A stretch of 64,000 nt of DNA from Paraspadella gotoi (taxonomy: Eukaryota > Animalia > Chaetognatha): the NCBI GenBank assembly GCA_051294375.1, contig JBJCIZ010000239.1, positions 6,491,539 through 6,555,538 on the forward strand. The letters run 5' to 3'. The first letter of the stretch is position 1. Each line of letters begins with the position of its first letter. The notes under the pieces are model-generated. The model made no database searches. It saw only the letters and a list, made by a program, of their open reading frames with translations, and was not told where the DNA came from. Both the position numbers and the translations under genes were made by a program. Below are positions 778 through 48,190 of the stretch, in pieces.

Positions 778-3700
778 CTGTGAATGAGTGAAAGTGTGAA
801 TGTCTAGATGAATAAGAAGATGAATGATAATGACGAATGGAGGTGAATGGAATTTAAATAATAATAATAATTTAATAATAATTGCAAAATAAAAGAAAGG
901 TGAAAATGACTAATGCCAAACCTTGTTTTAATGCCTTATTTTCCCAAAAAAAGCCCTATCAAATCTTTGGGATGTGAGATCATGGATTAGGGATTTAAGA
1001 TTAGGGTGAAGGATTAATTTTTGGATTAGAGTTAGAGAATTGTGTTATGGATTTGGTAGCGGAGTAGAGCTAAAATTAGGTTCAGGGTTTTATACTTTTT
1101 TAAACCAAAAAACAAAACAAAGAAAAACAAAACCAAAAACGAAACCCAGAATCAAAAGAATTAACGATCCAACCTGGAAATACCCATGAGGGCTAATTGT
1201 GAGCGCAGTCCCGAGGTCCGCATCAGAACTTCCTCCGAACAAATGATGGACGGCAGAGGGATGAAGGAAATGTACTCAAACTCTTGGGTGAATACCATGG
1301 GAGAAAGGTCCATGGGAAACGGGTAAGAGAATCCCTAGTGATAGGAAAATTCCCAAAATATAATTTGCATATAATAGTACATTATTTAAATGGCTATTGA
1401 TTGATTAGTATTCTGTTTTGATATGTTATCAAGTTTTAGGTTTTACGACTATCGTTACTGTTGAATAATATACATTAAGGCGTAGTAAAATTTCTAAATT
1501 TAACTTTAATTAAAATTCTAAAAGTGAGGAACGAACAACATTATATTAATGAACATTTATGTATTAAAAAAATTTATAATAAATTTTACAATTTACGCAG
1601 TAGGCCATATTTATACTAGTACTAAATCAATAAATGTTAAAATTTCAAAACAGTTTTTTCTAAGATTTTTTTGCAGATTTGGATTCGTCATAAAAAGTTG
1701 ATATAAAGAAATATAACTCTTTTTGAAAAATTCCTTCATTAAGTGGGTCAAAAATTAGAAAAAGCTATATTTTAAGCTGAAAATTAACTTTTTATATATT
1801 AAATATAGTTTTTTAAATTTTTAACCCACTTAATGAAATAATTTTTAAAAATGATTTATATTTTCTTATATCAACTTTTGACGAGGAATTCAAATCTGCA
1901 ATCAAAATTAAGAAAAGCTTATTTTGAAATTTTTCGATTTTATAAGGATAGTACTATATATAAATATAGCCTACTGCGAAAATTAAAAAACATAAAATTA
2001 ATTTTTTTTACAAATTAATGTTCACTGATGGTATGTTGTTCATAATTGACTTTTAGAATTTTCGTATGTAACTTTCACTACGCCTTAATATACATATTAA
2101 TGGGTTTTTTTGTTATGTTATTGATAAGGTGATTTAATTATTTTAAACAACTGTGAATTAAACAGAGAGACAGAACGAGCTATTTCAGTGAACACGATGC
2201 GAGAACATTTACAAAAATTAAAGGCTGTACAAAGTCTGCATAATACTATTATGCTATTATTAATAGCAGCAAAGTTTCTAAAAATATATAATTCATAGCC
2301 TCAATGTTAACCCTTCACAGCCTTTCTCTCTCACCACTATGGAAGCGTTGACGGTAGAAGCGATGAGATTACTAACGTAATTGATGACAGCTGGCACGGC
2401 CAAAGTCCCAACCGGGTGATAATAAATGGTGAGGTCGGTGTTGTACTTACTCACCGGCCGCGCGAACGGGTCGAACTTCCTTACCTGCCGAGAAAAAGTG
2501 GGAGGAAATGAATGAATTATGGTGGACTAAAATCCGCCAACCGTTCATCAGCGGCCATTGGTGCCCGAGGCAAGTCATTCGCCTCCCAACCCAAAGGTAC
2601 GGGGTTCAAGCCGGGTGGTCGCATCGAGGTTAAGAGGGACGGGACGCTTAACCCGCCTGTATCATGGTGTTACAGCCTGATCCGAAGCGCAGGGACTGCT
2701 TATATTCTGTCACTAACACATAACAATAGTTACTGTTTCTTCAGAATTATTAATAGCTCAACTTACTCAACTTTTTGTTATGAGCTAAATTAGTTTGTTT
2801 CAATTCGTAATAAGCTTTTTTTCTCCAATCTCATTTATTATTTGCTTTAGCTAAAACTCTAGCTAGTTTTTTTGTCATTGTGAGAAGACATCTTAGTTGA
2901 AGTACAAGATTTAGGGTTAACTATTAGGGTTAGTGATTAGATTAAAGTTAGAAAATAAGATTAGGATTTATATTCTGGATTTGATAAAACTTTTACGAAT
3001 AGATCGGGTAAAAATATTAAGGGTTAAAATCAAATTCCAAATTAAATTCTAAAGAACCGAAAATAGTGCTAGTCTGTTGCATAAAGTCAGCGTTGGTAAC
3101 GCTCCCTTCAAATTCATCATTGATCCAATTTTCCGCTTCAAACCTTCAACCCCATGGGAAACATCTTAAACGTCTTGAACGCTTTTCCGAATCCTTCCTT
3201 CAGTGAATACTTTTTCTCCCCGTATTTGTAAGTCTTTTTCTCACTCATTCGCTTGTAAGTGTTGGTAAAGGCCATGTAATATTGTTTAAATTCTTCAAAG
3301 TAGAGGGATCTGGAAAAAAGAGAGCGTGTGGTTTTTTTTTTTGTTGGTTTGTTTAAAAGCACTGTTGTGGTAGTACGTTTTACCCTTCAACTCGGCTGAG
3401 AATCAACAGCAGCTATGGCGCCGGAGGTAACATGCACTCCTCCCCACTCACCAGGTTAGGGTTCACAACCTGCTAAGGGGCGTCTAGCCCACCTGTAGTG
3501 ACGGCCTACAGCTCGCGGCATTGTCCTCCAGTGGTTAGCCAAAACAATCATGCTGATACGCTACACCTCTGCCCGGGCCTGTTAAAACAACTCTGCCCTC
3601 AACCAATGTGGAAAGACGGGAGCAGGGACAGACAGCCGTCGAAAGGCCACTCAGCAGCATCAGACCAACTGCATTCAGCCATCACACTTTAGGGGCGTCC

Positions 3701-6209
3701 GACGCCGAGGGAGGATTTGTTGTGGTAGTACATAATACCACACAAGTCATCCAAGAATGAGCAGCACTTATGCTGCCAGAGGTAGCAACGCAAAGACTTG
3801 GGTTCGTTCCCTGCTGATTTCAGACAAGTGAGGGTGATGAGGTGTCTAACCCACTTGTAGTGACAGACTACAGCACAGTCTAAAGTTTGGGACCTTGTGT
3901 GCAATGAATGATGGTTCCTGGCATCGTTTTTTACACCACCCTATTTTAACCTCAAATTTTTTCTAAGTTTAAACATTAGGCTCAGGGTGAGGGATTAGAG
4001 TTAAGGACTACTTAATATAGATTAGGTTAGGGATTAGGGTTAGGGATTTTGTTTGTAGTTCTAGATAAAGATTAGGTCTTAGAATTAGGATTAAAGTTAA
4101 GCATTACGGTTAGGGATTGAACATAGTCTCAGTAAAAGATTAAGGTCTAACTTAAAAATTATAACTAGACTTGAGGGATAAAGGAACAGATATAAGGGCT
4201 TTTGTGGAAGAAAGTTTTGGGACTTTTTGAAACTGTTCGATAATTTGAATCATCTCGAGTAAGACAGGTGTCATGCTTAAAGGCGGGGTGAACTTATGCA
4301 CCGACTACACCCCTTGTCACCTTAAAACTCCTTCACCCAATTTCTAACCCACCCCAAAAAATGAAAACCCCTTACCGGTCATCGAAGATGTTTCTGTTAG
4401 AAAAACGAATGTTGTAGAGCGGCCACTGGTGAGGCCACTCGCTAAGCGGCGACCGCCGCGGCGGAGACGGTAGCCGAGGCGGTGGCCGAGGCGATGGCGT
4501 GGAGGGTGTTGTTGAAGGGGGTGGCGACGACGTCGACGACGATGTTGGCTTCTCGGTCCCCTTCTTTGGCGACTTCTTCGGTCGTTTCTTCGGTCGTTTC
4601 TTCGGCAGCGGCGTCTTTGGCATACCGATCATTCCCAGGAGTCGCTCGCAGTGTCGGCATTCGCTCGTGTCCCAGAGGAAAGGATAAAGAGTCATGACTT
4701 TGTCCGGGAGGAAGGGGTAGAGCTGCGGTTTCTTCACGTGCATCTGGTTGATGGCACCAAGGTAAGCAGCGACCTTCGCGTTGAGTTCCAGTTGTTTAGG
4801 GAGAAGACGAACGATTTTTTTTTCGAAGGTTTGTCGCTGTGGATATTGAAGGTTAGGATAGAGTTAGATCGATGGAGGAAGATAAAGATTAAGTCGGGGG
4901 GGCTAAGATGGTCACAAGTTAGTCGCAAGATAGTCTTTTAAGTACATGAATGGCTAGTGCATAGTACAACAAAAGATTCCCTGGTCTAAAATTGGAGGGG
5001 GTTGTCTTATTAAAACATTCATTGAATTATTTATCCATTGATAAGGAAGCCAGATGCACTGGAACTTCCTTAACTAGACTGTGGGAGAGTCTTGATTGAA
5101 AGCTGGCGGAATCTCGCTATGAAATAAGTACCACTTTAATAAAAATTATACTTTTATTGAATAAACAAGTTATCTTGCCCCTGACATTAGTCTCTGGATA
5201 GTCTAGGGTCGGTTTTTGGCCTTCATCGCTCATACAAGATTTTAACAAGATCCTGAACGTTTTCAATTAGGACGCAATCATAGTTTAGTTTACTTACTCC
5301 CTTTGTGCTCGGCTTCCCTATCAACATTATTTCAACGGGATGATTGTAAATATCTTGTAAAAATGGCGGCTCTCTCTCTCTCTCCCTCTCCCAACTTCCT
5401 CCTCCTTTTTTCCCTCCCCCCTTTCCTGCAGAGTAAAAAGGAAGGACTTGTCTTTCAATCTCTTTTCGTTGACGTAGAGTGAGAGATTTGTCCCGTACAC
5501 CGTCGGGTTGGTTGGGAGACAAGTGACCCCAGCCTGACAGGAAGTTTGATGAGAGTACATGACCCCGCTGATGTAGCCGAGGAAGACGGGGCTTTGAATG
5601 AACATCATGAGCATGAGGTAGAGGCCAGGGAAGAGGAAGATCATCACGGCCGACGCTTTCTGCTTAACCTACGGACGGGATGTGCGAATACGGAAGGGGG
5701 GCGGTGGGGTTTAGGGCGTGGGTTAGGTGTTGAGGAAGTAGGGGTGTGGTGAAGGGGGAAACTTTGGACTTTAAGCAAGTCTCTTACCCACATTTTTACG
5801 CCCATACATACTGATGTATTTGAAAAAGCAATTTTGAACTTTAAATGTATCATAAAAATACCGAGACTATGGATAATTTCTTGAAACAGAGCGTCATAAC
5901 GTCTCTGCTCTACAAATAATTTTTTTTTATTTTGAGGCATGCTAAGTACCATGGTTTTGAATTTGATATTAAACATGGCGTTGAGCTTCTGAAAAGTCAG
6001 CTTAGGTCCAGGTTGTGTGACTTTCCCCATTTTAGGCAACTTGGCTCCTCGTCTGACGTGGAGAGAGAAAAAGAAAAAATGGAGGAAAATAAACTAAAAA
6101 AATTAAAATTGTAATATTTGTCCAAATTTCTTTTTTTTAAACATCAATTTTCTGCATCGCATTCTGGCTATTCCATCTAAACAGACGACAAGAACAACAA
6201 CGACAATCA

Positions 6210-6245
<36 letters not shown>

Positions 6246-9200
6246 TTCTCTTTCTTTCTCTTTCTCTTTCTTTCTCTTTGTACGTATATATTCATTGTCA
6301 TTGCTAATGTATTTATTTTATGAAATTCATAATTTTTAATTTCGTGCACTGATTAAAAGAATAGTATATAAATGACAAAAAAATTATATTATATTAGTAA
6401 AATTCCTTTTACAGATAAAACATTACCGATGAGATGAAAAAATGAAATACTAAATATAAAATATTGAATAATAAATAATAAAATAAATCAAATCAAATAT
6501 TACAGATAAAATATTAGAGATTAGTTATGACATAATATATATTAAAGATATATAAATCTAAAAACTTCAAATATTCTTTAAAAGTCATCACTTGTACTTG
6601 CACTGCCTATCCATAGTGAAATACAATCATTACTTATAAATTTTCATAAAAATAAAGCATTATATATAAAATATATATATAACAGATTGAAAAAAAGGCT
6701 ATGCATTCTGGACCCTCGCCTTTTCTGTCCAGCCTTGGGCAACAAATTCAGTGTGGAAAGGTCGATCTTGGATTTCGTTTTCGCTTGTAAAGAAGGGGAA
6801 TCGGAATCGGATTTCTCTGTAGGGGGGGAGGTGGGGGATGAAAAATGGGGTGGCCGGGGGAGGGGGGGTGAATATTAAATCAGAGGGGGAGTTATTAATT
6901 AAGTTAGATGTTAAAATTAAAAAAAAAAACTATAATGTTAACCTAAAAATTAAAAACGGGTATAATAAGTATTATAATTTGATAAAATAATTTTGAAAAC
7001 AATTAATTATACCATCTTTTAACGACTCAAATCTTACCTTATTATTAAAAAACAGATTATTTTAAAATTTTGACTTATTTGTATGTATTACTACTTTTAA
7101 ACATAAAATAAACTTACCAAAATATTTTTAAAGGTTATTATTTTTGTTTTATTCAATCAATTTGACAATCTTTTCTTATATTCAGAATTAAGTTTGTTTC
7201 AAGGTTATGCATTAAGATTTGATTTTAGTTAGGAATTAGGGTTATAGATTAAGGTTTAGGTTTATAAGATAAGGTTAGGGATTTAAGTGAGGAATTAGAA
7301 ATTGAAATTAGAAATTAAGGTTAAGGAATGATAGGTAAAACTGAATATTAACCGTGTAGGATCTTCCCGGTTGGTAATTTGTTTTCTGCTTTAAAGCACT
7401 GACTTAAAAAAATATTTTTTTTGTAAAAAAAAGAATAGTTGTTTTTCAAAAACCACCCCTAACCCTAATATTAACCACCCCTAACCCTTGCTACACTTAA
7501 CCCTAACTACCCCTAATCCTAACCACCTTAACCTTAACCACCCCTAACCATAACCACCCCTAACCCTCGCCACCTCTAAGCTCTAACTTTAAATACCCTT
7601 TACCTTAATCAAACTTTATTTTTTTCCTAATAATATCAAACCAAGGTAATGATATATGCAAATAAAAAAATAACCGACCGTCTCGGTTGTGGTCGGCGAA
7701 AGTACAATTATGCCGAATGATTTTTAGGGCGAGGAATTTGAAAAAAAAAAGTTCAGCTGGATGAGGAAACAGAAATGGGGGCGCTGTCCGGGAAAAAAAA
7801 TAATACTAGGTTTTAAAATTATATAATTATATCTTAATAAATTCTAATACTCACCCATCTGATCCTCCATGCTGACCGCACCCAGCTCGTCGATCATCTT
7901 GAGAAAGACCTCGTCCAAGGACGTCATCGAGATCCCGTAGTTCTCGATCCCGAGATCGGCCAATGTGGCAGGATCCTCCAGGCTGGCGAAGAGAAGCGGG
8001 AACTGAGCCGCGGATTCGCGGGGGAGAGTGAAGATGATTTCCTGTGAATATCGGAGAGTGAGATAGGGGGGTGAAGGGGGAGAGTGAAGATGATTTCCTG
8101 TGAATATCGGAGAGTGAGATAGGGGGTGAAGGGGGAGAGTGAAGATGATTTCCTGTGAATATTGGAGAGTGAGATGGGGGGTTAGGGGGGGGAAGAAAAA
8201 GGGTGAAGTGGAGGAAGGAGGGAGGTAGGGGTTAAGTCAGTGGAGTGCCCAAACCATTCTTTGTAAAGTTGAAGGAAATATAGAATTATTTATGTAACTT
8301 GGCAAAAATGAAATCGGTTTGGGTCTTTTTTTAAAAGAAACCTTAAATGTTATTGGGTATTTTTTCAAATGTCTTAACTTTAATGAAAGTAATTTACTAA
8401 TTATTGTAAATAGAAACTTTGTGTTGGGCCTTAATGTTGTCTTTTAAATTGTTTTTTTTTTACTCAAAGCCTAACCTTTTCCACATCTAAATTCTTACCT
8501 CTTTGGAAGCCTCACCTGGCCGTGCAGCCTCCCCAGCGTCGCCGAAGGCAGATAATTCATCACGAAGTTCGCTATTTTGTCCACGTTCACTGATCCTTTT
8601 GTCACGAGGTTCAGGTGATAACCCAGGCCGAATCTGTAGATAAGTTTGGCCTTTTTTTACCAAAACGTCCCGTTTTATCTTGAATTCGGAATTACATGGC
8701 TGACCAATTTTACAAGCGCCGGTAGAAATACGTTTTCATTTGCAAACCAGTGGTTATTTCATTGATTTAAAAATTAGTTGAGTATAAAATACTAAAACTA
8801 TTTATGTGTTAAAATTTTATATTGATCAGTTAAGATATGTCTTGACAATGAGTGGAGAAAGTTGGCTTTTTCAAATCGGGGTTTAATTTTCCAACTCACT
8901 TTTTTAAATTAAATTTTTTTTTAACTTTTAGCACTTTTTTAAAAAAAAATATTTATTAAATATTAACATTATTAATATCCTCAGAAAGCCTTTAAAAATA
9001 TGAAGAGAATGATATCTTTACGAAAGCTCTAACATAAAAAGTGGCTGCCCAGCCTTGGTTCAATTAAGAGTGTCAAAAGTAAATTATTTAAAATTTTAAA
9101 TTTAAAAAAAAAAAATTTTTATGACCTGTTTAAATTATTATAACATAAAATATTATTATTTATCATGAAAGAGCCTGAGAAAAAAGGATTTAAGATAGCC

Positions 9201-12200
9201 AATCACAATTTAAATTTACTCTCCAGCTATTGATTTTTAAAAAGATGTCTCGTTTTTGAATATCCTAATTAAATTAAAGCTGGGCCAGTTAAATTTTATA
9301 CTACAGTATTTGTAAGTACGTCATTCTTTTTAGATTTGAAAGGGCTTTCAGAAGATAATAAAATTAATATTATTTTTTTTCAAATTTCTTTAGAAAACTT
9401 AAGAGAGAAAAAAATTAAATCTAAAAAAAGTGAGTTGGAAAATAAACCCGATTTTACAAGCCAACTTTCTCCACTCTCATTGTCAAGGCATATCTTAACA
9501 GATCAATATAAAAATTGAACACATAAATTATTTTTATATGTTTTATTTAACTAATTTTTAAAATCATTGAAATAACCACTAGTTTGCAAATGTCAGCGCT
9601 TTTTTACCGGCGCTTGTAAAATTGTCACCATGTAAATCAGATTTTACGTTTTTAAAGCTCAGGTTAGAAATTAAGGTCAAAGATTTAGGGTTAGGGTTAG
9701 GGTTTAGAATTTGGTTCGTCATACAGATTAGGGTAAAAGAATATGTTATGGGTTTTAAAATAAAGGAGAATTAAATATTAATGTTAAAATAAAATTCAGA
9801 GATTAAGGAACAGAAATAGAGCACTTTTTAGAAAAAAAAGTTTAAAGTTGAAACTTTAATCAAATCCATTAGGAACAGAAATGGGGCGGTTTCAGAAAAT
9901 AGTTCTCATACTTATTCTTCAGAAACATTGAGGAGCCCATGCACTGGAGGTATCCGTTGATGAGGATGGCCTTTCTGTCGGCCAGGATGTCGGCTTCGTC
10001 CATGAAGTGTGTCGTCAAGATGATTACCTTTTTTTCGTTTTTTGGGGGTTTTTATAAATAAATTGATGAATAAATAAATAAATGATTAATAAATAGAATG
10101 ATTGATAAACAGTGATTAAGAAAACGTGAGAAAGTGAGAAAGAGAAAAGAGCAAAGAGTGAAAGAAAAATATGTTAAAATTTCAAAAACAGTTTTTTCTA
10201 AGATTTTTTTGCCATATTTGGATTCGTCATAAAGTTGATATAAAGAAATATAACGTCTTTTTGAAAATTCCCTTCATTAAGTGCGGTCCCAAAAATTTTA
10301 GAAAAGATATTTTAGCTGAAAATTAACCCACGTTTCTTTATTATAATTCAAATATAGTTTTTTAAATTTAACCCACTTAATGAAATAATTTTTTAAAAAA
10401 TGATTTTAATATTTCTATTATTCAACTTTTGACGACGGAATTCCCAAAATCTTGCCCAATCCCAAAATGTTTTTGTGTATAATATATGGTACATTGTCTA
10501 TGGTCAATTATATCATTAATCGCACTTTAACATTTATACAATAATATTTATAAATTTAAATTTTTTTTTATTTTTTATCTGCCAGTGATGATTCTTTTCG
10601 AAAACCACATCATGTATATTTTTAAAAATTTTTATTTACTTTTTGTTTTATCTATCTTGTTTTTTCATCAATTCTTTTTTTTTTTTATATAACAAATTTT
10701 TTTATTTTTATATTTCTTTTCTCGCGCCCACCCTATCCCGCTTTTGCTGCGTGTGATACACATCTACTCCGATACGCCTTTCTCTCGCTGCTCCATCATT
10801 TCCTAGCCTTGTGTTTAGAAAATACTTACTTAGGTGGATGTGACTCTGTATTCAAATTTTATATCTTAATTTACTTGTTTAAATTCTTTATTTTAAAACA
10901 ATTTTAATATAATTTCTTTAAATATTTTTCTTTTAATTGAATTTGGTTTATCTTTTAAAAATTGTAATTTAAAAAAAATATATTTTTATAATTTTAAATT
11001 TTTTTTTGTTTAAATAAATCTTGTGTGATTCTCTTTTTCTTGTTGTTTCAAAAAAAAAATATTTTTTAAAATTATTATCTTTAATTTATTTTTAAAAAAT
11101 TGATTTTTGTTTGTTTAAAATTTTGTTAATTAATCATCTTTATTTCAATGTATTTTTCGTCTTATTCCTTTATTATTATCAAATCATTTAATTTTTAATT
11201 AATAATTTTTTTTAAAAATATAAAATTTATAAATTTACTTAAAATCTGTTTTTTAATGTTTTTCAAATTTAAAATAGTTACTTTGTGTCTAATTAATTTA
11301 CCTGATATGTTTCTTCAATGAATTTCAATTTTGTGTAAAGATAAAATATTTTTATTTTTTATTTTAAAATTTATTTGTTTATTGTTTTTGTTGTTTGTTT
11401 TTATTTTTTAATATCTTTTAATTCTTTATGTTTATTTTTGTTAAATTATTTTTTATTTTAATTATTGTTTCTTCATTATATTTTTATTATAAAATTTTTT
11501 TTTTTATTTTTATTTTTTTTAATTTAAATTACTATTTACAAATTTGTTATAATTTTTTTCTTTAAAATTTATTTAAAAGTATATTTGTTCTAATTTATTT
11601 TTTTTCACAAATATAAATTATTTTTATGAAATTCTTTTTATTTTTATTAAAATTTTATCAATTTTATTATTTTTGTTGTTGTATTATTAATTTTTATTTG
11701 TTTTTTATTCTATTATTTTTTTTTAATAATTTTTCTTATTCTTGTAAAAATGATTTATTTTAATTTTTTTAAAAATTTTTCTTTTTTTTATTATTTTTTA
11801 TTATAAAAATTGTAATAATTTTTATTTCAAAAAAATAATTTGTATTCTTTTTTTTATAAAAAATTTATAAATTTAATAAATTTTTTCTTCATTTTATTTC
11901 ATCCATTATATTTTACATTTAATTTTTTTTAATTATTGTTCTTTAAAAAAACCAATAATTTTTATTTATTATTTTTATTATTAATTTTTTTTTTTTTATT
12001 CTATTTCTTTTATTTTTTTTAAAATTAATTAAATTTTGTTTTTAATTTTTTATTATTTTATTTTTGTTAATAAATTTATTTTCTTAAAATGTTTAAAATT
12101 TTTTTTTAATTTTTTTATATTTTTTTTTTTTAAATTTTTTCAAAATTCTTATTTTTTTATAATTATTTTTTTTTTTTTTTTAATAATTTAATCTTTATTA

Positions 12201-17091: not shown

Positions 17092-17140
<49 letters not shown>

Positions 17141-21095: not shown

Positions 21096-21158
<63 letters not shown>

Positions 21159-21323
21159 CGCCAGAACGCCTTCACCTTCCCCTGCTTTATCCTTCCTTCA
21201 GANNNNNNNNNNNNNNNNNNNNNNNNNTTTACAGACAAAGAGAGAGATTAGGAACAGAGAGTAGCGTGTGCATAAAGATGAAAATGAGAGGGAGGGAGAG
21301 AGAGAGAGGAGGATAGAAGGAGA

Positions 21324-21366
<43 letters not shown>

Positions 21367-21795: not shown

Positions 21796-21826
<31 letters not shown>

Positions 21827-36316: not shown

Positions 36317-36362
<46 letters not shown>

Positions 36363-39300: not shown

Positions 39301-41233
39301 CATAGCAAAGTTCACCCCGCCTCTCAAGCATGACACCTTAGGTTCGTGACCGTTTGGCTTTGAAATAAAGCAAAGTCAAGCTCATTGAACCTACTAGGTA
39401 TACGAGTTCAATCTCTAACCAGTAACGCCGTAAGACGTTGGGCGTGGAACTCAACTGGTTAACCAGGACTTCATACTCTCGAGGGGTTAAGTAAGTCATC
39501 TTAGCTAGCGCTATTCAAGGTAGTTGTCTTTTATATACTATAATTATATGCTAGTAAAGATTTACAATTTACTTCAGTGTACAGAAGAATATTTTTAGAC
39601 GATCTAGTAGAAGAGATTAGATGAGAGAGACCTTGTACCTAAACCATCTGGAAGAAGTTCTAATGAAATTGTTTATACAGTGTGTCCTATACTACTATAT
39701 GGCTGTGAGGTAAAAACTTTTTTGGGCTAGAGACATGAACAGAATTAATGTTGCTATTAATGATGGTATCATGAAAATTATTCGGATTCAAACCGATGGA
39801 AAGCATTAGAGAGCTTCGGACTTTAGTTTGGTTACTGTGATATTATTACATGTTTAACCAGCGTAAAAAGAACTTTATTTCCAAGATCTATAGTTCGAAA
39901 ATTTAGTTTCAAAAAAATAATCGCATTCTTTAATGATTGAAATATATTAATTGATAATTTGGACCTTTGTTGTCTGTGGTGGTGGTTTTCACGCAATCTT
40001 TAACTTTGTTTGTTTTTAGACTTAGCTTTTTTGATGCTCCTGTATGTAACTGAATCAACCTTGTTGAATCGAAATAAAACGCATTCTAAGCATGACACCT
40101 TCAGTCGTGACCGTGGCTCATTGAGTAAAGCCATCAGCTCATGACCACTAGGTACCGGGTTCAATCCCAACCAAGTGTGAGGACGGCCGTAAGCCGCCTT
40201 GGGGGGTGGAAAACCCTCAAGCCTGGTCCAAGCCCAGGATCCGTTCCATAGCTGCTCGAGGGGTTAAGAAGTTACGGATAGTCATCTTCAGCCCACTAAG
40301 CGCCTTATCCACAGTTGTAGCTTTAATGTTCGTTTATTATACATATAAAATTTTTTATTGCTAGTATTATTAAGATTATTTTATACAATATTTTAACTTT
40401 CAATTGATTGGATTGACGAGAGAGAGAGAAGAAGAAGAGAGAGAAGAGAGAGAGACACCTGCAGCCGGTTCCCGTAGACGGTGGGAAAGAAGTGCTCGAG
40501 ATAAACTGCGATAGCAAGAAGGCGATGAATTCGACAGAGAGAATATAAGACCGAGCCTGAGAAGAAATTTAATGTAATAAATATATAATAAAATACTTAA
40601 TTATATTTCAAATATCTAAATTAATAATTACTTGAAAAAAAATGTGTTGATGAACATTTTACAAATTTAAAAATAGAAAGAAAGAATAAGATTAATCTAT
40701 GAAACTTCGATCCAAAATTAAATTAATTTCAAAGTTAAAGATTAGGTTAAAGATTAAAGTTAGGGATTAGGTTGTGGATTGGCTTAAGAATTAAGATTGG
40801 GATTAAGTTTGTAATAGGGTTTAGGGATTAGAGTGAAGGATCAAAGTTAACATCAGGGATTGAATAAAAATTTGTTAAGAGGTTAGATCTTAGGGTTAAA
40901 ATAAAGTAAAACAGAAATGAGCGCGGTCTCGGTAAATAGTGCCGAAACGTGGGGTCCCTAACTGCGCCGTGAATGTCCAGTAGAGGGAAGTGCCGTCGTC
41001 TCGTTCGTCGGAAGCTCAACTTCTTCGTTGATGAGATCCCATCTGAGAGAAGGAAGAAGGAGAGGGTTGGTGGGGAGTGGGAGGGAGTGGGGAGTGGGGG
41101 AAGGGGAGAGATGGTGGGAGGAGGAGGAGGGGAGGGGAAAGGGAAGATGGGGAAGGGAAAGAATTTTAGGGAAAGGAGAGAGGAAAGGAGGAAGATGAGG
41201 AAGAGAAGAGAGAGGAAAGGAGAGAGGGTTGAT

Positions 41234-41290
<57 letters not shown>

Positions 41291-41535: not shown

Positions 41536-41600
<65 letters not shown>

Positions 41601-44600
41601 ACGTGACGCTTCGCTCGACGGCGGCGAGCCAGACGCAATGAGTGAGAGCGAGACAGATGGCGACTTGCGGTACGATGGCGAAGATGCAGGCAACGGCGAA
41701 AGGAATCAGCATCATGACGAACATGAGGATGGGTGTGGCCAGAGCAAAGAAGAAGGCGCTGATGATGCTGAAGACTGCGTTCGCGTTTTTTTGTGTGTGC
41801 GTATGTGTGTGTATTCGTGTTTATTTGTGTGGAGGTGGAGTAAGTTAAGAGGGATGGAGAGAAAGCGGGAGGAAAGGGACGGGCATTGCCTAAGTTCAAC
41901 CCGTTTCTGAGCATGACACTTTCAGTCGTGACCCGGCGGCTCATTGAGTAAAGCCATCAGCTCATGACCACTAGTTACCGGGTTCAATCCCAAACCGGGA
42001 AGCGTGAGAACGGCCGTAAGCCGCCTTGGGGGCGTGGAATTCCCAGCCCAGGACCCGTTCCATTGCTTCTAGAGGGTTTAAGGAAGTTGCGGTTAGTCTG
42101 CGGGTAGACTACCAGTCATCCTCGGCCCACTTAGCGCCTTATTCACATTAAGTTCAGGGGTCGTTCCAATGGTGGCGTAGGGTTGAAATCCTTACCCCAT
42201 ACAATTAAATCAAATCAAATCAACTAATCCAATCGATCAATCAAAATCGCATTAATACCTGCGGCGCTTTTCACGCTCTTGAAGAGAACCGAAACGACGA
42301 AGGATTGAGAAATGACGGTGAGAGAGTAAATCCAGAAAAGAATGAAGAAGACGCTCCTGCAGAGCGAATAAATTTTAAAAATATATATTATATACAAATG
42401 TATTAAAATATCTGTTCAATTCTTATCTATCTATTCTAAGCTAAATCTAAATTTATTATTCTTAATATTAATAGAAACAGTTGCTCTCCCCCTGACCATT
42501 CAATGTTGCCCACGATCCAATCCGATCCGACGACCATGATGAGCATTAGGCAACTTAGGATGAGCGCCTCGAAAGCATTGACGACGAGGTAGGACAACCA
42601 GAAGGCAGACTCCAACATGCCCATCACCCGCATCATGTCTTTGATCTGTAGGTTTGAAAAACATGGGAAGGCGTGGTTGAGGGTTGGTAGTTGGCAGGGA
42701 GGGATGGATCTGAAGAAAACTTAATTTCTGATATTATTGTAGTCGGGCATTGCCTAGGTTCACCCCGCCTATAAGCATGACTCTTTCAGTTGTGACCCGG
42801 TGGCTCATTGAGTAAAGCCATCAGCTCATGACCACTAGGTACCGGGTTCAATCCCAACCCGGTACCTACCTTGCGGGAAGAGTGAGGACGGCCGTAAGCC
42901 GCCTTGGGGGCGTGGCAAACCCTCAAGCCTGGTTCCAAGCCCAGGACCCGTTCCATGTCTGCTAGAGGGGGTTATAGAAGTTACGGATAGTCATCTTCAA
43001 CCCACTTATTATTATTATTACGCTCAAAAATTTTGTAAAGAGAGCGAATTTTGTCATTTACACATACAGAGGCAGCAAATAAATATTGTAACATATCCCA
43101 ATCCTTTCATCACCCCTCCCTAAAAATAAATTCGTTCGAAGAAAAAAAAAAAAACTAAAAAAAATAAATCTTCAAGGTTTTTGCGTGTGTAAAAATGTTG
43201 CGCAGTATGCATAGTACGCAATGCATACGAACCTAACCTTGCTCTCTTTCTCGCTGACCAACTGAACGACGAGAGAGACGTAAAATGGAATGAGACCCAA
43301 AGCCGCGGCCACGCCCAACAGATGATATTGGCCGGCGGCGCCGACTGCCGGCCGGCCATCCGGCGTGTAGGTTAGACGAGGGACGGGGAACATCTTGACG
43401 CTGTAGTTGAGACGGAGGCCGCTGATGACGGGCGGGTCGGAGCCTGGCGGGAGAGGGGGGAGGGAGAAGAAGGGAGGGAGAAGAAGGGAGGGAGAATAGG
43501 GGAGGGAGATGGTGGGAGGAAGGGAGGTGGTGGAGTGGGAATGTAAAGAACCCAAAGTTTTGATAAAACGTGATTTACATCTTTTTAAAAATGTTTAACC
43601 TTTTTTTTTTTGTAAGGTGGAAAAGACGTAAAGGGGATTTGTTTATATGTTTATATTTGATTATATATACATTCTATCCCGTGTTTAACAGCAACGTTTG
43701 TTAGAAATGATTTTAATTCAAACAAATTCTCTTCGTGAATATCTGAATTGTTTTTAGTCTCTACTTTAATGATTTTATATCTTTACTCTCATTGGTCGAA
43801 TTCTACCAATAGTAGTTAATGATTGAATTCTCAATAATTTTAAAGAAGATCTCTCTTCTCATTGGTCCATTAAATTTAGTCTTTGTATAAAAGAAAGGGC
43901 AACTTTTATTTTTTGAAGAGATTGCCCTGGGACCATAAGGTAATTGAATGATTTACTGAAATTATTAAATAGTGGAATTAGTATTAATAAATGGTTATAT
44001 TTTGTAGCTTTTGAGCTTCCACAGCTCTTCCAATGGCTCTTCCACAGCTCTTCCAATGGCTCTTCCACAGCTCTTTCAATGGCTCTACTGATTGTTATTT
44101 CGATTGTCCTTATAACTGTCAACTGAATTACAACTAACTTCAATTAATACTACTAATGGCGTTACGGTTATTGATGAGTCAACAATAGAGAAATTAATAT
44201 GAAGGATGCTCAATCGTGTTCCCAAGTCCGTAAGGAAATGTGCAATCTCTAACACCGTTAATGTTATCAGAGTAAATGTATTATGTTTTCCCTTCTCATT
44301 TTTCTTAACATTTTTAGTCGTTTATGATTAATCCCTTCTTTACAATATTAGGAACGCTTCACAATCTTAATTCACATTTCCGTCCTGGTCCAGTATCCTC
44401 CTTAAAACGACCACCCCCAACCACCCCCTCCCCAACCACCCACAACGTCCACCCTTAACCCACTTACCCCGGGTGAGTTCCTCCAAAATGGCGGATTCGA
44501 CGACCATCTGCAGCTGCGCATATCCGCTGAGGAGATAATCGTTCGGCGGGCAGTTTGAGGAGAGACCCTGGTTATTGATAGTGGTTATTGATAGTGGTTA

Positions 44601-47591
44601 ATGATTGGTGGATGGAATTGTGGATGGATCAGAGAATGGTTTTGTGGATGGATCATAGAATGGTTTTGTGGATGGATCAGAGAATGGTTTTGTGGATGGA
44701 TCAGAGAATGGTTTTGTGGATGGATCAGTGGTTAGATTAAAGAAACAAAATTCATTGCTCTTTAACTCTTAAACTGGAAATTCAAAATCGGTATCTAAAA
44801 TTTTTTTTTTTTCACTTTTTTTACCATCTTATTGAAAGAATTTTTTAAAGAAAGAATTATACTTTCTTATAAACTTTCTTATGAAATTGGTACAACCAAT
44901 ATAAAAATTATCCATTCATTTAATAAATAAGCTATCTTGCCCCTGACTTTGGACAGGCTTTGGTGGTTTAAGGCCTCCATCACTCTTACAAGATAATGAC
45001 ATAGCAGGTCCCTGCAAGCTTTCAATCAAGACTCTCTCACAGACTTGTTTATTCACTCCCAGAGTACCTGGCTTCCCTATCAATGAAGTGGAAAATATTT
45101 CAAAGAATGTTTCAATTGTATGAAAAGACCACTCCCTTAAGTATTAGATCGGGGAATACTTATTGTACTCCGCACTAGCATCAAAATACAAGGAGCTGAA
45201 TTTTATGAAATTGGTACAACCAATATAAAAATTATATCATTCCCCCCAAATTTTTTTCCCGCTCCCTACCTTCAAAAGCGGTTGGTAGCAATAACGCGTC
45301 TCCAAATAAGAAGATGCGATCGCTTGAAAATCCGCGCGTGGACCCTTTTTGGGGACCTGGAAGAGGGTGGACGGGGATCGGGAAGAGGGTTTGAGGAAGA
45401 TGAGGCGAGGAAGGGGGTGTTGATCGCCTGATCGAATCCCACCCCCCAAAAAAAAGACTGGTCACGTGACTTTATAAAAGTATGAAATAAATGCAGAGTG
45501 AAATGGAAAATCCTGATGGATCGTCTACTTTTTCCCGGGAAAACTTAACCAAACCGCGGCATTGAGTATGTCATGTCATGTCGCAATAACTCATTGGGCG
45601 TGTGAACGCGTTATCTCGTACTGAACGAGCGACAAAAAGGGAAATTTAATTTCCTGTAAACTATTTTTTTTTTTCATAATATTTTGTATTTATTTGCTTA
45701 ACGCTTTTCTTTTTTCTGAATTTTTTCGAATTTACCTGCAGAACCAAACCCGGGCCGGGCATTCGGATAGCGTATTTGGGTGTCCGGATCTTCATAGGAT
45801 CTGGAAGATATAAACAAAAATTGCGATTCTAAATTGAATCGAATGTCAGGGACGAATTTCCACGCCATCTCGTTCGTTTAATAAAGGAATTTTTGGTTGA
45901 GGCTGAATCACGAAGCTGACATTTTGACTCTATTTAGTATTTACCCTGTCGCCATTTATCACCACAAATATACGGACTTTTGCAGGTTGAATAATACATA
46001 AAACACTTCGGTCAGCTCCTCCCACGCAACTTTGTGTAATTTTGTGCAAGAGTTTCACAATAATACGAAACTGTACATTTACTTTCTGACTTTCATCTTT
46101 ATTCCAGCGACGCTCTATTTAGCTTTTTTTTAAAATGTATTATGTACTAGAAGTGCATTCATATGTTTTAAAGAAAGTAAAACATTTGTCATGTAAACTA
46201 TTCTCACTATACTAGCAAAGTAGATTTATAAAAATTAGAAAATAGAAAATTTCCTTCCAAGATTTTCGTTAAGAATAGTTTCGGGTTCCTAGCGTAGTGA
46301 CATTCTCTTTACAATGCGTATCACTATGCATATTACTATGAATAATATGCTTTTCTTAGTGACTGTTTTGATGTCGAGAAAATTGTTTCTTCAACTTCAT
46401 ACTCACGAGTCAATCGCAGTTGGAGTCCGAACCAAGAATGGAATCTACACATTTAAATGAGGGCACGATCTATAAAAAGGAGCGCCAGCGGATTCTTTAA
46501 AGCGCGAATCGTTGGCGCCGCCAATTCTTTCCCTTTACTGAATTTTCCGGCGCCGCAACCGTCACTGACGGCGTCAGAGCCCAAAAAACTCACATGGAAC
46601 GTAATCCGTGTCTTCGCCTTCGAAAACGATGGCGCCGGCAATGTTGAACTTGTAGATTCGTCGGTAGATCTCGACCAGCTTCTCGTTATTGGCCAGGATT
46701 TGACTCTCTGCCCTCTGAGGATTAATTGATCGATTTTTTGCTAAATTGATTCATAGAGTCGTTCAGATGTTTAATTAATTGTTAATATTGCTTGTTGTTT
46801 TTTTTTTTCAGGCAGGTAACGCCCGTTTTGGGTTGTGTTTGTCAACTTGTCAGAAGTGAAAAAAAAACTGCAATGATATCGATTAATTATTATATCAAAC
46901 ATTAAATCAATTAATAAATCTATCAATCAAACAAACAATCAATCAATCATTCATATTCCCTGATGAATTCCAAGATCTTTGAAAATTCTTCTTGTCATCC
47001 TTTTCACTCTCGTCGAAGATATTCCATTTTGGACGACAAAAAACTGTCGCGAGTCTCTGATGATAAATATGCAATACACAATATAAAATATTATTATATT
47101 ATTTTGTTATTATATAGTATTTTTTAAGGCGACAGACGGATAGACGGATAGTTTCTATTTGAGTACAATAAATAAAGAATTACAACTTTATTGCTGAGTC
47201 AGTATCGATGCTTCATCCGAGAAAGCCCCCCCCCTCGCGGCCCCCACCCCCCCCAAAAAAAAATAATAAAGATTCACTTTTGAGTGGTGAACTGGAAAGG
47301 CTGCTCGTTGTTGAGCGTGAACTTTTTGGGTTTGGCGTTGAAGAGTGGATAAACGGGAAAGTCGACTGCGTTCATCGCTTGATCAACTCCGTCCTTCTTG
47401 AAGATCTGTCCCAGAATGATGAAGAGCAGCACGAAGAGCAGTTCCGAGAAGGTGCGGAGAAAGCTGCGCACTTTGAGCAGAAAGTTGCGGCTCATCAACG
47501 CCCAGAATTGCGGCAGGAATCCGCCGCAACAGAAGATTTTCCTCGCCGTTTTCTTTTTGGGCGGAGGAAGGTTCGCCGGTTTGTCCGGCAT
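688..47591 (-). CDS. ABCA-subfamily ABC transporter, multi-exon gene; 3' part (rest of TMD2, NBD2) lies beyond the left edge; middle region triplicated in the assembly
   Basis: Phase-consistent GT-AG exons give an ABCA N-terminus ([15 protein letters not shown]), ECD1 motifs ([24 protein letters not shown]), [14 protein letters not shown], Walker [11 protein letters not shown]-loop [37 protein letters not shown]-domain FGLGY and [14 protein letters not shown]. Confidence 0.95.
1174..1334 (-). CDS. ABCA exon (TM8 region)
   Basis: [10 protein letters not shown]...[31 protein letters not shown]; TAG/GTTGGA. Confidence 0.85.
1476..2087. mobile_element. hAT-type MITE
   Basis: TIR TAAGGCGTAGT/ACTACGCCTTA, 8-bp TSD ATATACAT, imperfectly palindromic body. 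Confidence 0.85.
2455..2484 (-). CDS. ABCA 30-nt microexon
   Basis: Pyrimidine tract + CAG | [10 protein letters not shown] | GTGAGTAAGT, phase 0/0. Confidence 0.7.
2551..2715 (+). mobile_element. tRNA-Gly-like head (2551-2623) plus twister (family B)
   Basis: 73-nt tRNA-like unit with acceptor GCGGCCA/TGGTCGC-A, CGCCTCCCA and GGTTCAAGCC; the other arms are decayed. Confidence 0.65.
2628..2697 (+). ncRNA. Predicted twister ribozyme, P5-type (family B; assembly copies ~13470-13545 and ~26885-26960)
   Basis: P2 G(A)GG/CCC; GA-CGG; GACGCT; T2649|AA; GC; P3 CTGTA/TACAG; P4 CCTG/CAGG with A-G closure; loop TCCGAAGC; weak P5. Confidence 0.65.
3144..3309 (-). CDS. ABCA ECD2 exon
   Basis: [20 protein letters not shown]...FPMGLK; CAG/GTTTGA. 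Confidence 0.75.
3377..3717 (+). mobile_element. ~340-bp SINE-like insertion with 14-bp target-site duplication, nested in a related element
   Basis: TGTTGTGGTAGTAC at 3363-3376 and 3718-3731; internal TGGCGCCGGAGG / GGTTCACAACC boxes. Confidence 0.7.
3824..3898 (+). ncRNA. Degenerate twister-like motif (family D)
   Basis: P5 ACAAG/CTTGT; GA-TGR; GGTGTC; TAA; CCC; T2 AC/GT; P3 TTGTAG/CTACAG; loop TCTAAAGT; mismatched P2 and P4. Confidence 0.45.
4376..4836 (-). CDS. ABCA ECD2 exon with K/P/S/T-rich segment
   Basis: Open 461-nt frame [36 protein letters not shown]...[11 protein letters not shown]...NIFDDR; CAG/GTAAGG. Confidence 0.75.
5426..5668 (-). CDS. ABCA exon (TM7); donor uncertain
   Basis: [23 protein letters not shown]...KSFLFTLQ; TAG acceptor; donor either CAG|GAAAG or GAA|GTTGGG about 30 nt further. 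Confidence 0.8.
5950..6052 (-). CDS. ABCA exon (start of second half)
   Basis: [34 protein letters not shown]; CAG/GTACTT. Confidence 0.8.
6714..6816 (-). CDS. ABCA linker exon
   Basis: [33 protein letters not shown]; CAG/GTCCAG; phases match. Confidence 0.65.
7855..8041 (-). CDS. ABCA R1 domain exon
   Basis: [23 protein letters not shown]...[19 protein letters not shown]; CAG/GTGAGT. Confidence 0.93.
8022..8180. repeat. ~56-bp tandem repeat x3 spanning an ABCA splice acceptor
   Basis: GAGAGTGAAGATGATTTCCTGTGAATATYGGAGAGTGAGAT repeated. Confidence 0.88.
8516..8633 (-). CDS. ABCA R1 domain exon
   Basis: [39 protein letters not shown]; CAG/GTGAG. Confidence 0.92.
8695..9632. mobile_element. 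Foldback MITE with long TIRs and TA flanks (Tc1/mariner-like); assembly copies ~19519-20459 and ~33074-34024
   Basis: TA-CATGG(C)TGAC..ATTTTACAAGCGCCGGTA ... TACCGGCGCTTGTAAAATTGTCACCATG-TA; inverted similarity extends about 300 bp. Confidence 0.8.
9912..10027 (-). CDS. ABCA NBD1 H-loop exon (copies near 20740-20857 and 34320-34446)
   Basis: [39 protein letters not shown]; AAG/GTATGA. Confidence 0.93.
10171..22640. other. Second copy of the ABCA mid-gene block (probable assembly duplication)
   Basis: Collinear with 1634-10150 and 23581-35990; scattered indels break exons. Confidence 0.8.
23315..23533 (-). CDS. ABCA NBD1 signature/Walker B exon, cleanest copy (3' end truncated)
   Basis: [73 protein letters not shown]. 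Confidence 0.9.
34776..35029 (-). CDS. ABCA NBD1 signature/Walker B exon, indel-laden copy (another at ~21399-21650)
   Basis: Same sequence as the clean copy at 23315-23533, with frameshifts; ends ...KQGK|GTTGAA. Confidence 0.75.
35428..35511 (-). CDS. ABCA NBD1 exon, Q-loop (second, indel-bearing copy at ~22055-22141)
   Basis: [28 protein letters not shown]; CAG/GTGAG. Confidence 0.92.
35981..36223 (-). CDS. ABCA NBD1 exon, Walker A
   Basis: [38 protein letters not shown]; 5' part appears to carry indel errors. Confidence 0.92.
36746..36818 (+). tRNA. tRNA-Arg (anticodon ACG), intronic and antisense to ABCA
   Basis: 73-nt cloverleaf: acceptor GACCGCG/CGCGGTT, A box TGGCCAAATGG, anticodon arm TCTGA-CTACGAA-TCAGG, T arm GAGGG-TTCGAGT-CCCTC. 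Confidence 0.88.
36940..38108. repeat. 42-bp (distally 57-bp) minisatellite built from an ABCA exon end and its splice donor; unique insert at 37628-37850
   Basis: Minus-strand unit AGCTTGGATGGGAAGATCGCTTTGAAG|GTGAGGCAGAGAGAA = [14 protein letters not shown]. Confidence 0.92.
38081..38242 (-). CDS. ABCA exon (TMD1-NBD1 linker)
   Basis: [12 protein letters not shown]...[14 protein letters not shown]; CAG/GTGAGG; its 3' end seeds the 42-bp array. Confidence 0.85.
38288..38887. mobile_element. hAT-type MITE, same family as 1476-2087, opposite orientation
   Basis: Same TIRs; 8-bp TSD TTGTGTAG at 38280-38287 and 38888-38895. Confidence 0.88.
38891..39515 (+). mobile_element. tRNA-Met-derived, twister-bearing SINE/retrozyme-like element (family A): 400-bp monomer plus degraded second unit in tandem
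   Basis: TGTAGTCRGGCATAGCAAAG at 38891 and 39291; A box TGGCTCATTGAG, anticodon loop CTCATAA, B box GGTTCAATCC. Confidence 0.8.
39024..39100 (+). ncRNA. Predicted twister ribozyme (family A copy with two single-base homopolymer losses)
   Basis: Same elements as 42873-42951; predicted site T39045|A. Confidence 0.65.
39570..40080 (+). mobile_element. Degenerate 3' remnant of a non-LTR retrotransposon (LINE)
   Basis: Frameshifted peptide pieces [30 protein letters not shown]-like, typical of LINE ORF2 C-termini; ends near AATAAA. Confidence 0.55.
40085..40312 (+). mobile_element. Family A copy (5' truncated, P5 5' strand deleted)
   Basis: Close match to 38924-39170. Confidence 0.8.
40459..40556 (-). 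CDS. ABCA exon (TM6 end)
   Basis: ...[17 protein letters not shown], matching the ABCA YL..V.P..YG motif; CAG/GTGTCT. Confidence 0.85.
40963..41042 (-). CDS. ABCA exon
   Basis: [16 protein letters not shown]...; CAG/GTTAGG; phases match. Confidence 0.7.
41603..41774 (-). CDS. ABCA exon (TMD1)
   Basis: [18 protein letters not shown]...[11 protein letters not shown]...; CAG/GTGAGA. Confidence 0.85.
41879..42145 (+). mobile_element. Family A copy (internal deletion across P3/P4)
   Basis: Close match to 38897-39170. Confidence 0.8.
42259..42356 (-). CDS. ABCA exon (TMD1)
   Basis: [32 protein letters not shown]; CAG/GTATT. Confidence 0.9.
42497..42645 (-). CDS. ABCA exon (TMD1)
   Basis: [19 protein letters not shown]...; CAG/GTCAGG. 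Confidence 0.9.
42739..43020 (+). mobile_element. Family A copy ending in a (TTA)n tail
   Basis: Leader + tRNA head + twister, then AACCCAC-TTATTATTATTATTA; TATTATT immediately upstream of the element. Confidence 0.85.
42873..42951 (+). ncRNA. Predicted twister ribozyme, P5-type (family A, most intact copy)
   Basis: P5 GCGGG/CCCGT; P2 G(A)GT/GCC; GA-GGA; CGGCCG; T42895|AA; GC; P3 CTTGGGGG/CCCTCAAG; P4 CCTGG/CCAGG; loop TTCCAAGC. Confidence 0.8.
43238..43443 (-). CDS. ABCA exon (TM2)
   Basis: ...VKMFPVP...[21 protein letters not shown]; CAG/GTTAGG. Confidence 0.9.
44468..44567 (-). CDS. ABCA exon (ECD1)
   Basis: [33 protein letters not shown], the ABCA Y..SGF..LQ..V..AI motif; CAG/GTAAGT. 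Confidence 0.9.
44620..44728. repeat. 24-bp tandem repeat x4.5
   Basis: GTGGATGGATCAGAGAATGGTTTT. Confidence 0.85.
44881..45235. repeat. Interspersed repeat related to 4955-5330 and 62780-62920
   Basis: Shared TATCTTGCCCCTGAC, GGCTTCCCTATCAA and TAGTGC..AGTACAA motifs; ATGAAATTGGTACAACCAATATAAAAATTAT at both ends. Confidence 0.6.
45270..45356 (-). CDS. ABCA exon (ECD1)
   Basis: [29 protein letters not shown]; CAG/GTAGGG. Confidence 0.8.
45736..45800 (-). CDS. ABCA exon (ECD1)
   Basis: [21 protein letters not shown]; CAG/GTAAAT, phases match neighbours. Confidence 0.85.
46594..46714 (-). CDS. ABCA exon (ECD1)
   Basis: [40 protein letters not shown]; CAG/GTGAGT. Confidence 0.85.
46960..47056 (-). 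CDS. ABCA exon (ECD1); 3' boundary uncertain
   Basis: CAG acceptor; open frame [20 protein letters not shown]...; donor either internal AGA|GTGAAA or non-canonical CAG|GGAATA. Confidence 0.6.
47278..47591 (-). CDS. ABCA first coding exon
   Basis: [14 protein letters not shown]...[32 protein letters not shown]...; donor GTGAAT. Confidence 0.88.
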
Positions 47592-47899
47592 GATGATTTT
47601 TTTTTTCCCTTTTTTAAGTTACTTTATTTTTTGTAATCTAGTTTTTGTTTGTTTGTTTACAATTCGCTTTTATCTTTTAGTTTCTTTTTGATTCATACTT
47701 TCAACGATTTGTTTTTGTTTTTGTTTTTATATTTTCGTTAAGAATTTTTAAAAATCTTTTGATGTCGAAAAAAAAAATATTTGTTTAAACGTGGATTTTT
47801 CGCCCGCTGTCTTTGAGGGTAAAAAAAATTTAAGGTTGTGTCATTAATGGGCTCCTAAAGTAATATAAATATTACTCTAAACATTTGAATTTTTACTCC

Positions 47900-48190
47900 G
47901 CGCCTCCTCATGTGAAAAATAGTCGTGTGTGGCGATATATTCACACCGCCTCACATCCACCATCATTCAGCCAAATCCATTGGCTCAGAGGGGGAACACA
48001 CCATCCCAGGCGTAGAGTTCCATCCACAGTCCTAATGACTTCCCTCTGCGTTGGCAAAGCGAGACCGTCCTAGGGTAACCGCGCCAGTGACTGGAGGCGT
48101 CACTGAGGGTCGGAAGCCCCCAAAGCCAACAGTGAGATGCCCCATCCCAATGGGCATCACAGGCAACCCGGCTGTTGCCATACGTGCGAG
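47900..48190 (+). mobile_element. tRNA-derived, twister-bearing element (family C) between the MBOAT stop and ABCA start
   Basis: GC-rich island with A box TGGCTCAGAGG (47981) and B-box-like GAGTTCCATCC (48015) just before the twister; boundaries approximate. Confidence 0.6.
48050..48130 (+). ncRNA. Predicted twister ribozyme, P5-type permutation (family C)
   Basis: P5 GTTGGC/GCCAAC; P2 GCG/CGC; GA-CCG; P1 linker TCCTAGGG; T48076|AA; T2 GC; P3 CAGTGAC/GTCACTG; P4 GGG/CCC; loop TCGGAAGC. Confidence 0.8.

Follow-up and report, generated by a model that had tools for sequence, protein, structure and literature searches.

What kind of mobile element would place a predicted twister ribozyme behind a tRNA-like promoter, and how would such an element spread? 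The question is raised by a stretch of 64,000 nucleotides from the chaetognath Paraspadella gotoi (assembly GCA_051294375.1, contig JBJCIZ010000239.1, positions 6,491,539 to 6,555,538 of the forward strand), here called the window, in which the initial annotation described four unrelated families of short repeats (A to D), each with remnants of an RNA polymerase III (Pol III) promoter followed by a type P5 twister. Its central idea, several repeat families with one twister design, holds, and its interpretation as a whole is borne out in part: A to D are there, a fifth family (E) with the best twister of the window had been missed, E is recovered by Rfam (below threshold) and by a model from which it was held out, and A, C and E are high-copy repeats with sharp ends. 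Our preferred reading, to which we give a probability of about 0.55, is that the elements are non-autonomous, probably Penelope-mobilised repeats, akin to retrozymes and to short interspersed elements (SINEs), of the Schistosoma SMalpha kind, with a predicted twister replacing the hammerhead. That A, C and E carry a real twister-derived motif appears very probable, and cleavage by at least one family likely.

The copies found are given below in window coordinates. P, T and L stand for the stems, pseudoknots and loops of the twister, and R1 is a covariance model built from six cores of families A, B and D.

A5, 42738-43008, plus strand: leader 42738-42793; tRNA-like part about 42794-42866 with A box at 42801 and B box at 42845-42855
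A5 twister, 42873-42951, plus strand: predicted cut after U 42895
A1, 38891-39170, plus strand: one base lost in P2/T2; optional 3' tail; tail-like 8-mer just before the 5' end; training sequence of R1
A2, 39291-39520, plus strand: 400 bases past A1; divergent, twister mostly deleted; missed by R1
A3, 40086-40312, plus strand: 5'-truncated, without the 5' arm of P5 and one L4 base; R1 score 53.5 bits
A4, 41881-42142, plus strand: P3 and P4 partly deleted, T1' altered; R1 score 35.8 bits
A leader-only fragment, 4266-4309, minus strand: without tRNA part or ribozyme; also in two duplicates
B, 2520-2715, plus strand: leader hairpin; tRNA-like part 2551-2622 with 7-bp acceptor-like stem; B box 2603-2613
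B twister, 2627-2699, plus strand: without the invariant G-C pair; predicted cut after 2649
B duplicates, about 13340-13590 and about 26750-27005: within the triplicated segment
C, 47928-48182, plus strand: 255 bases; A box 47981-47991; weak B box near 48017; both ends set by contigs
C twister, 48050-48130, plus strand: 8-base palindromic linker; predicted cut after 48076
D (D1), 3718-3940, plus strand: B box 3801-3811; decayed twister 3824-3898 with a T1 mismatch and G.U closing L4
D duplicates, about 14570 and about 27990: within the triplicated segment
Dx, 3363-3717, plus strand: related to D, which it precedes in tandem (64% alike over 158 bases); broken twister
E1, 44879-45235, minus strand: unit of 324 bases, with 33 bases directly repeated at the two ends; no A or B boxes
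E1 twister, P5 at 44995-44933, minus strand: best twister in the window; predicted cut after 44970
E2, 62777-62919, plus strand: 5'-truncated; 98% like E1; one base lost in P2/T2; changed T2 base in L4
Two decayed E pieces, 4953-5324, in opposite orientation: abutting at about 5118-5121; duplicates at 15835-16206 and 29234-29606
Further E-family piece, 53593-53667

The five claimed copies of A are thus present, only A5 having a complete twister core. C occurs once in the window, and B and D, the latter with its tandem relative Dx, are confined to a threefold segmental duplication. The families cannot all be called unrelated, as the initial annotation had it: the leaders of A and C align (p 0.009), the only one of ten leader pairs to do so apart from D and Dx, so that not all families are independent. 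Between the tails of the five families no similarity was seen (none of ten pairs at p < 0.01). The GC-rich spacers between Dx and D (3520-3715) and between A1 and A2 (39170-39290) have no match elsewhere in the window. We also considered whether the 5' half of E could be the end of an open reading frame of a Penelope-like element (PLE), and found no support for this: the amino acid identity between copies is 39%, there is no Pfam match, and a single repeat protein was hit spuriously.

The element order that we scored, P5-P2'-GA-T1'-linker-TAA-P2-T2-P3-P4/L4-P5', is that of the Rfam Twister-P5 consensus. It was found where it had been claimed in A, B and C, with the TNNNAAGY loop on P4, and in D in decayed form. 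A UAA in L1, predicted to be cut after the U, together with the GA that would supply the general base G and the trans A-A partner, occurs in permuted order in A5, two B copies, C, E1 and D1. T1 (3 bp) and T2 (2 bp) are fully Watson-Crick, with differing sequences, in A5, B, C and E1. The reported covariation of T1 holds for A (GGA/TCC), B (CGG/CCG) and C (CCG/CGG) but fails for D, because the copy at 3732-3900 has TGA, not TGG, at T1' and is mismatched; TGG at this place was found only in the D duplicates, whose L4 is broken. T2 varies as described, GC/GC being replaced by AC/GT in D and likewise in E. P2 does not reach 4 bp: there are two pairs and a mismatch in A, B and E, P2 has 3 nt in D as well, and in C three of four positions pair. 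The near-invariant G-C pair closing L4 is kept in A5, C and E1, whereas all three B copies have A.G and D1 has G.U. The closing stem P5 has five pairs in A5, six in C and nine in E1, and is weak in B. P1 amounts to 1-2 bp; it is reduced to a linker of 6-8 bases, palindromic in A, C and E.

How likely is such an arrangement to arise by accident? A loose first descriptor had no discriminating power (8 matches against a mean of 9.4 in 30 shuffles). A strict descriptor, tightened after the sequences had been seen (P4 containing GC, a linker of 4-14 and a P2 of 3-4 in which one mismatch was allowed), returned 8 rows representing five loci (A5, C, two B copies and E1), whereas 300 shuffles yielded 0.15 rows each on average (maximum 4); with P5 of at least 5 bp there remained 6 rows at three loci against 0.013 per shuffle, and 297 of the 300 shuffles were empty. 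The covariance model R1 is a less circular test. It recovered the held-out E1 (44934-44992) with 26.1 bits (E 2.9e-6) and E2 with 16.1 bits, the best unrelated match scoring 11.9. The comparison with Rfam called for in the initial annotation gave no match at gathering level; the Twister-P5 model (RF02684, cut-off 37.6 bits) scored E1 at 25.8 and A5 at 16.3 bits, choosing in both the same sites as our descriptor, and C had 15.2 bits with the twister-P1 model and no Twister-P5 match. It must be noted that the Rfam Twister-P5 model makes no provision for a long P3 and is built on longer P1 and P2 stems than are seen here. In the six-row alignment of A, B and D, T1 was paired in 94% of the cells and T2 in 100%, with double-sided changes in two of three T1 pairs and one of two T2 pairs; this is description more than proof, since each of the three families contributes two rows and it was from these rows that the structure was derived. 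A pattern scan for A- or E-like cores found none in metagenome contigs and none in viral contigs. A looser pattern gave four loci (L001-L004), near-identical, protein-coding-looking and without GA-T1 and P5, which we dropped as chance matches.

In a survey of more than 2,600 P1-type twisters, imperfections of P1 and P2 were well tolerated, whereas pseudoknot mismatches and changes of the top P4 pair were not (PMC11662667). That survey did not include type P5 twisters. The G-C pair closing L4 is essentially invariant in crystal structures (PMC5408937). On these grounds, A5, C and E1 could plausibly be active ribozymes; B is a doubtful case, and D1 has probably lost its activity.

Are these repeats mobile, and where do they begin and end? 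Contigs of four public runs (from three studies; four of nine listed runs) were mapped onto 41800-48260; depth-based abundance thus covers A, C and E, and the ends of B and D are not defined by reads. In run X1 the summed contig depth was about 60-250 in unique bins and reached 6-7e5 at A5, 8e5 at C and 1.3-2.4e6 at E1. After rescaling, A, C and E stand about 10^4-fold above unique DNA, a value which is not a copy number. The other three runs had the same peaks, and E is the most abundant of the three families measured. Loose contig ends pile up at 42738 (5' end of A; 134 contigs in X1, 104 in X2), at 47928 and 48182 (C) and at 44879-44881 (3' end of E; 593 contigs in X1); the 3' end of A5 lies at 43003-43008 in two contig pieces. 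Beyond these ends the elements run into unrelated AT-rich flanks, as interspersed repeats do. The distance from the start of L4 to the 3' end is nearly constant, 76 bases in A (71-76), 73 in C and 74 in E, and that from the predicted cut to the 3' end is 113, 106 and 90 bases, respectively. A5 ends in (TTA)n, and three A copies have an optional tail of about 14 bases. In E the contig depth halves toward the 5' end, and this family shows a tail extension, a partial tandem, an inverted neighbour and 5' truncation, none of which is seen in C. The ends of C pair with each other over 10 bp (7 of 1000 shuffled tails were as good), and an identical 4-mer on both flanks may be a 4-base target duplication. 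Terminal inverted repeats were considered for A as well and rejected, the end pairing not being significant (266 and 140 of 1000 shuffles). Contigs of all four runs join 45098 to 47928, placing an end of C next to an E copy of opposite orientation elsewhere in the genome, which suggests a nested insertion. Raised contig depth was also seen at the repeats 43950-44390 and 46900-46990.

From its sequence, the tRNA-like part can be recognised clearly in A and plausibly in B and D; that of C is weak, and E has none. The B box of A is perfect (equalled in 4 of 300 shuffles) and has an A box 44 bases upstream, and the head of this family aligns end to end with the tRNA-Arg of the window (p 0.01). Heads can likewise be aligned between A, B and Dx (p 0.0005 for A-B and for B-Dx). 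E has no A or B boxes (280 of 300 shuffles as good). The claim of box remnants in all of A to D therefore holds clearly for A, through both boxes and the tRNA-Arg alignment, and the boxes of B, C and D do not beat shuffled sequences. The tRNA-Arg(ACG) gene itself is intact (36746-36818, plus strand), lies within an intron of an ABCA5-like gene, antisense to it, and is immediately followed by a tandem array of 42/84-base periodicity (36934-38112).

The tRNA part is not a head in the sense of the initial annotation, since about 50-55 bases of the element precede it: the A boxes of A and C lie 63 and 53 bases inside the contig-defined 5' ends at 42738 and 47928. The start site of Pol III lies some 10-20 bases upstream of the A box. 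The leader would thus be missing from a transcript that the element's own promoter drives, and can be inherited only by way of an upstream unit, a circle or read-through. As E has the twister without the boxes, the shared module is the twister with the 3' end, and the promoter is an add-on. It looks as if E were the promoter-less form, and as if A, and probably B, C and D, had captured a tRNA promoter.

To which known elements do these repeats come closest? The SINE-like repeats of Schistosoma are named SMalpha and Sj-alpha. In these a Pol III promoter is followed by a hammerhead, and the promoter comes to lie at the 3' end of the cleaved monomer (PMC6765202). Our elements share with them the small size, the Pol III-type promoter followed by a ribozyme, and the open stem that holds the rest of the unit (PMC6765202); they differ in having a type P5 twister, at least four or five families and mostly dispersed single copies. 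The combination of promoter and ribozyme emphasised in the initial annotation is already known with a hammerhead (PMC6765202), so that the novelty lies in the ribozyme class and the number of families, not in the design. With the metazoan non-LTR (long terminal repeat) retrozymes, which carry type I hammerheads, they have in common non-coding units of 170-400 bases and a permuted ribozyme suited to tandem transcripts (PMC7229834; bioRxiv 10.64898/2026.07.22.740005). The minimal closing helix with a palindromic tetraloop and the proposed PLE mobilisation are further likenesses; non-LTR retrozymes are now argued to be non-autonomous PLEs (bioRxiv 10.64898/2026.07.22.740005). The ribozyme class, the internal tRNA-like promoter and the scarcity of tandem arrays in the window set them apart, retrozymes being said to be without promoters (PMC7761336). 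No hammerhead match was found in the window at E <= 1, and without a hammerhead the elements are neither SMalpha nor non-LTR retrozymes as defined; nor are they canonical SINEs, since the tRNA part is internal.

The twister itself resembles Rfam RF02684 and the T-variant twisters of RTE/Perere-3 in the UAA cut site, the GA general base, the L4 pattern and both pseudoknots, and shares with the latter the association with retrotransposons (PMC8501958). It departs from RF02684 in the 1-2 bp P1 with palindromic loop, the 3-nt P2, the long P3 and the sub-threshold scores, and from the RTE twisters, which are P1-type and sit at the 5' end, in being permuted and internal to the element. In the title- and abstract-level search of the open literature we found no description of P5 twisters in SINE-, retrozyme- or PLE-type repeats, although supplements, subscription papers and Repbase or Dfam entries, which lay beyond its scope, could hold some.

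The spacing and the ends point to Penelope. A PLE reverse transcriptase starts internally, in a stem-loop 85-92 bases past the hammerhead cut, a tail of 30-40 bases marking a second start (PMC11167929), and tails, partial tandems, inverted neighbours and 5' truncation are hallmarks of PLEs and of their Naiad clade (PMC8557442). Our elements likewise have a fixed internal 3' end about 90-115 bases past the ribozyme cut and AT-rich targets, and the 30-40 base tail, partial tandem, inverted neighbour and 5' truncation are clearest in E. Unlike PLEs, they gave us no open reading frame and no autonomous partner. The Naiad clade, described as without hammerheads (PMC8557442), would be the likeliest partner; the word "twister" does not occur in that paper. 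A cycle can be proposed on this basis. The transcript would be made by Pol III, from the tRNA-like promoter inside one of the units, or by Pol II reading through. In a tandem or longer-than-unit transcript, successive twisters would cut between U and A and release a unit-length RNA, permuted so that the promoter falls into its 3' half; ligation may turn this RNA into a circle. A Penelope-type reverse transcriptase/endonuclease would then start internally, about 90-113 bases past the cut, at the fixed 3' end, choosing AT-rich targets and copying through twister, promoter and leader, which is how the leader would be inherited; most genomic copies would decay afterwards.

Several observations weigh against this proposal. 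No PLE protein was found, a peptide search with E being likewise negative for PLEs; in the single PLE examined experimentally, insertion did not need hammerhead cleavage (PMC11167929). R1 misses family C, B has no Rfam twister match, and all copies in the window stay below the Rfam gathering score. P2 has 3 nt in four of the five families, and altered P2 length may, according to one structural paper, disturb the active site (PMC5408937). The A/B box scores of B, C and D are within the shuffle range (66, 53 and 41 of 300 as good), and the head of C aligns with no other head. There are no long tandem arrays in the window, only the loose pairs A1-A2 and Dx-D, and a T4 run lies between A1 and A2; Dx has good A and B boxes (3416, 3460), and no T4 run separates its promoter from the end of D. 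C, with two sharp ends, paired ends and a possible target duplication, fits a DNA transposon derivative as well. All six independent tRNA-headed insertions in introns of the ABCA5-like gene are antisense to it (p 0.03; C, just upstream of the first exon found, was excluded from the count), which counts for the proposal, but this bias vanishes when E1 and E3 are included (6 of 8, p 0.29), the intact E1 being sense-oriented in an intron of a spliced gene.

The sense orientation of the intact E1 also speaks for another reading. It is conceivable, though unlikely, that the fold is kept mainly for binding the partner's reverse transcriptase, or cuts only with a protein or as a dimer, free co-transcriptional cutting being weak. 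Axolotl hammerheads, in which a 1-bp helix III carries a palindromic tetraloop, must dimerise to cut well (PMC7229834), our 1-2 bp P1 with its palindromic tetraloop is alike, and the PAc hammerhead cut only with protein (PMC11167929). The calculated self-duplex energies of the linker are favourable in A (-10.7 kcal/mol), C (-11.0) and E (-9.1), but the duplex is weak in B (-2.1) and unstable in D (+2.5). P1 is, moreover, dispensable for twister cleavage in vitro (PMC5408937; PMC11662667), and for this reason dimer cleavage through the palindromic P1, suggested by analogy, may be taken only as a lead.

Could the repeats instead be ordinary tRNA SINEs of the RTE-type bipartite sort, mobilised by a long interspersed element (LINE), with the twister a mostly dead relic of the 5' end of RTE? 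RTE 5' ends do bear twisters, known there as P1-type (PMC8501958, PMC7761336), and SINE bodies are made from RTE 5' parts (PMC5786205). In their P3 stems, B and D are similar to the Rfam twister-P1 consensus, most copies are decayed, and the terminal (TTA)n of A5 would fit. We nevertheless regard this origin as quite unlikely. RTE twisters begin at the cut site, and the GA-T1' placed before UAA, the compensatory T1 and the closing P5 make up a permuted form that an RTE 5' end does not supply. In addition, the tRNA part is preceded by a leader and is lacking in E, and an intact ribozyme behind a SINE head would be expected to truncate it (PMC5786205).

Still less probable, in our estimate, are non-autonomous DNA transposons, either miniature inverted-repeat transposable elements (MITEs) or Helentron-like elements, carrying tRNA and twister as cargo. 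The ends of C described above and the sharp 5' end of A speak for them; the pairing of the ends of A is not significant, however, and E, which is 5'-truncated, has a single sharp end and carries a direct repeat at its termini. Nor would a DNA transposon give a reason for pseudoknot covariation or for a fixed distance from ribozyme to end. Chance resemblance in GC-rich, hairpin-rich repeats, for which the loose descriptor and the sub-cut-off Rfam scores might be quoted, is hardly credible in view of the strict descriptor, the recovery of held-out E and the same geometry in three families with read-set ends.

The setting of the repeats is eukaryotic DNA of 35.5% GC, much of it spanned by the ABCA5-like transporter gene (minus strand, from about 47700 to below 2353). 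The closest match of an ABCA exon is a protein at 68%, whose best named relatives are mollusc ABCA5-like proteins (about 37%). The gene is spliced, as a contig of run X9 joins exons 43238-43442 and 47278-47701; X9, which also covers A, C and E, is RNA by guess only, and as contigs show neither start, end, strand nor level, we draw from it no conclusion on expression or cleavage. An 8-11 kb part of the gene is present three times, 89-93% identical with many single-base indels:

1911-10171, 12742-21012 and 26152-34608 (also 10171-21202 with 23581-34799): triplicated ABCA segments, with 1-base indels and N gaps

The threefold segment is possibly an artefact of noisy long-read assembly rather than a true triplication, and since it is full of single-base indels, single-base defects in any repeat copy may be assembly errors. 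Other features of the window are:

1469-2094, 38281-38894, 10171-10452, 23581-23862 and 12742-12922: MITE-like AT-rich fold-back element, about 550-630 bases long, whose inverted repeats are long and imperfect
8683-9644, 19510-20468 and 33068-34025: imperfect palindrome (fold-back element) of about 960 bases in the triplicated segment
51400-52630, minus strand: highly divergent exons of an MBOAT-family acyltransferase; the homolog search with an exon gave no homolog
54814-62280: degenerate AT-rich satellite of 7.5 kb

What would these repeats mean for the biology of ribozyme-bearing elements? A role for eukaryotic twisters has been proposed so far only at the 5' ends of RTE elements. Since at least three families with an abundance of about 10^4-fold carry P5 twisters that fall below threshold, counts based on Rfam miss a large class. 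A bolder picture, a second retrozyme world of animals or other eukaryotes, based on twisters and parallel to that of the hammerheads, with a P1-reduced P5 twister in the terminal repeats of Naiad-type elements, repeated capture of tRNA promoters by their non-autonomous offspring, about 10^4 copies of each, circles and domain-swapped dimer cleavage, we put forward only tentatively and think rather unlikely; if true, the palindromic-P1 twister would be the first natural dimeric twister. More soberly, the elements are likely the twister-based counterpart of the hammerhead-bearing jumping repeats of blood flukes and salamanders, their self-cutting being predicted. If they do cleave, hammerheads would not be the sole ribozyme of retrozyme- and SMalpha-type elements, and a possible answer would be at hand to why Naiad elements thrive without hammerheads. 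Such elements would also provide short substrates for studying the PLE mechanism, the survival of SINEs with a ribozyme behind the promoter, and the dimerisation of twisters.

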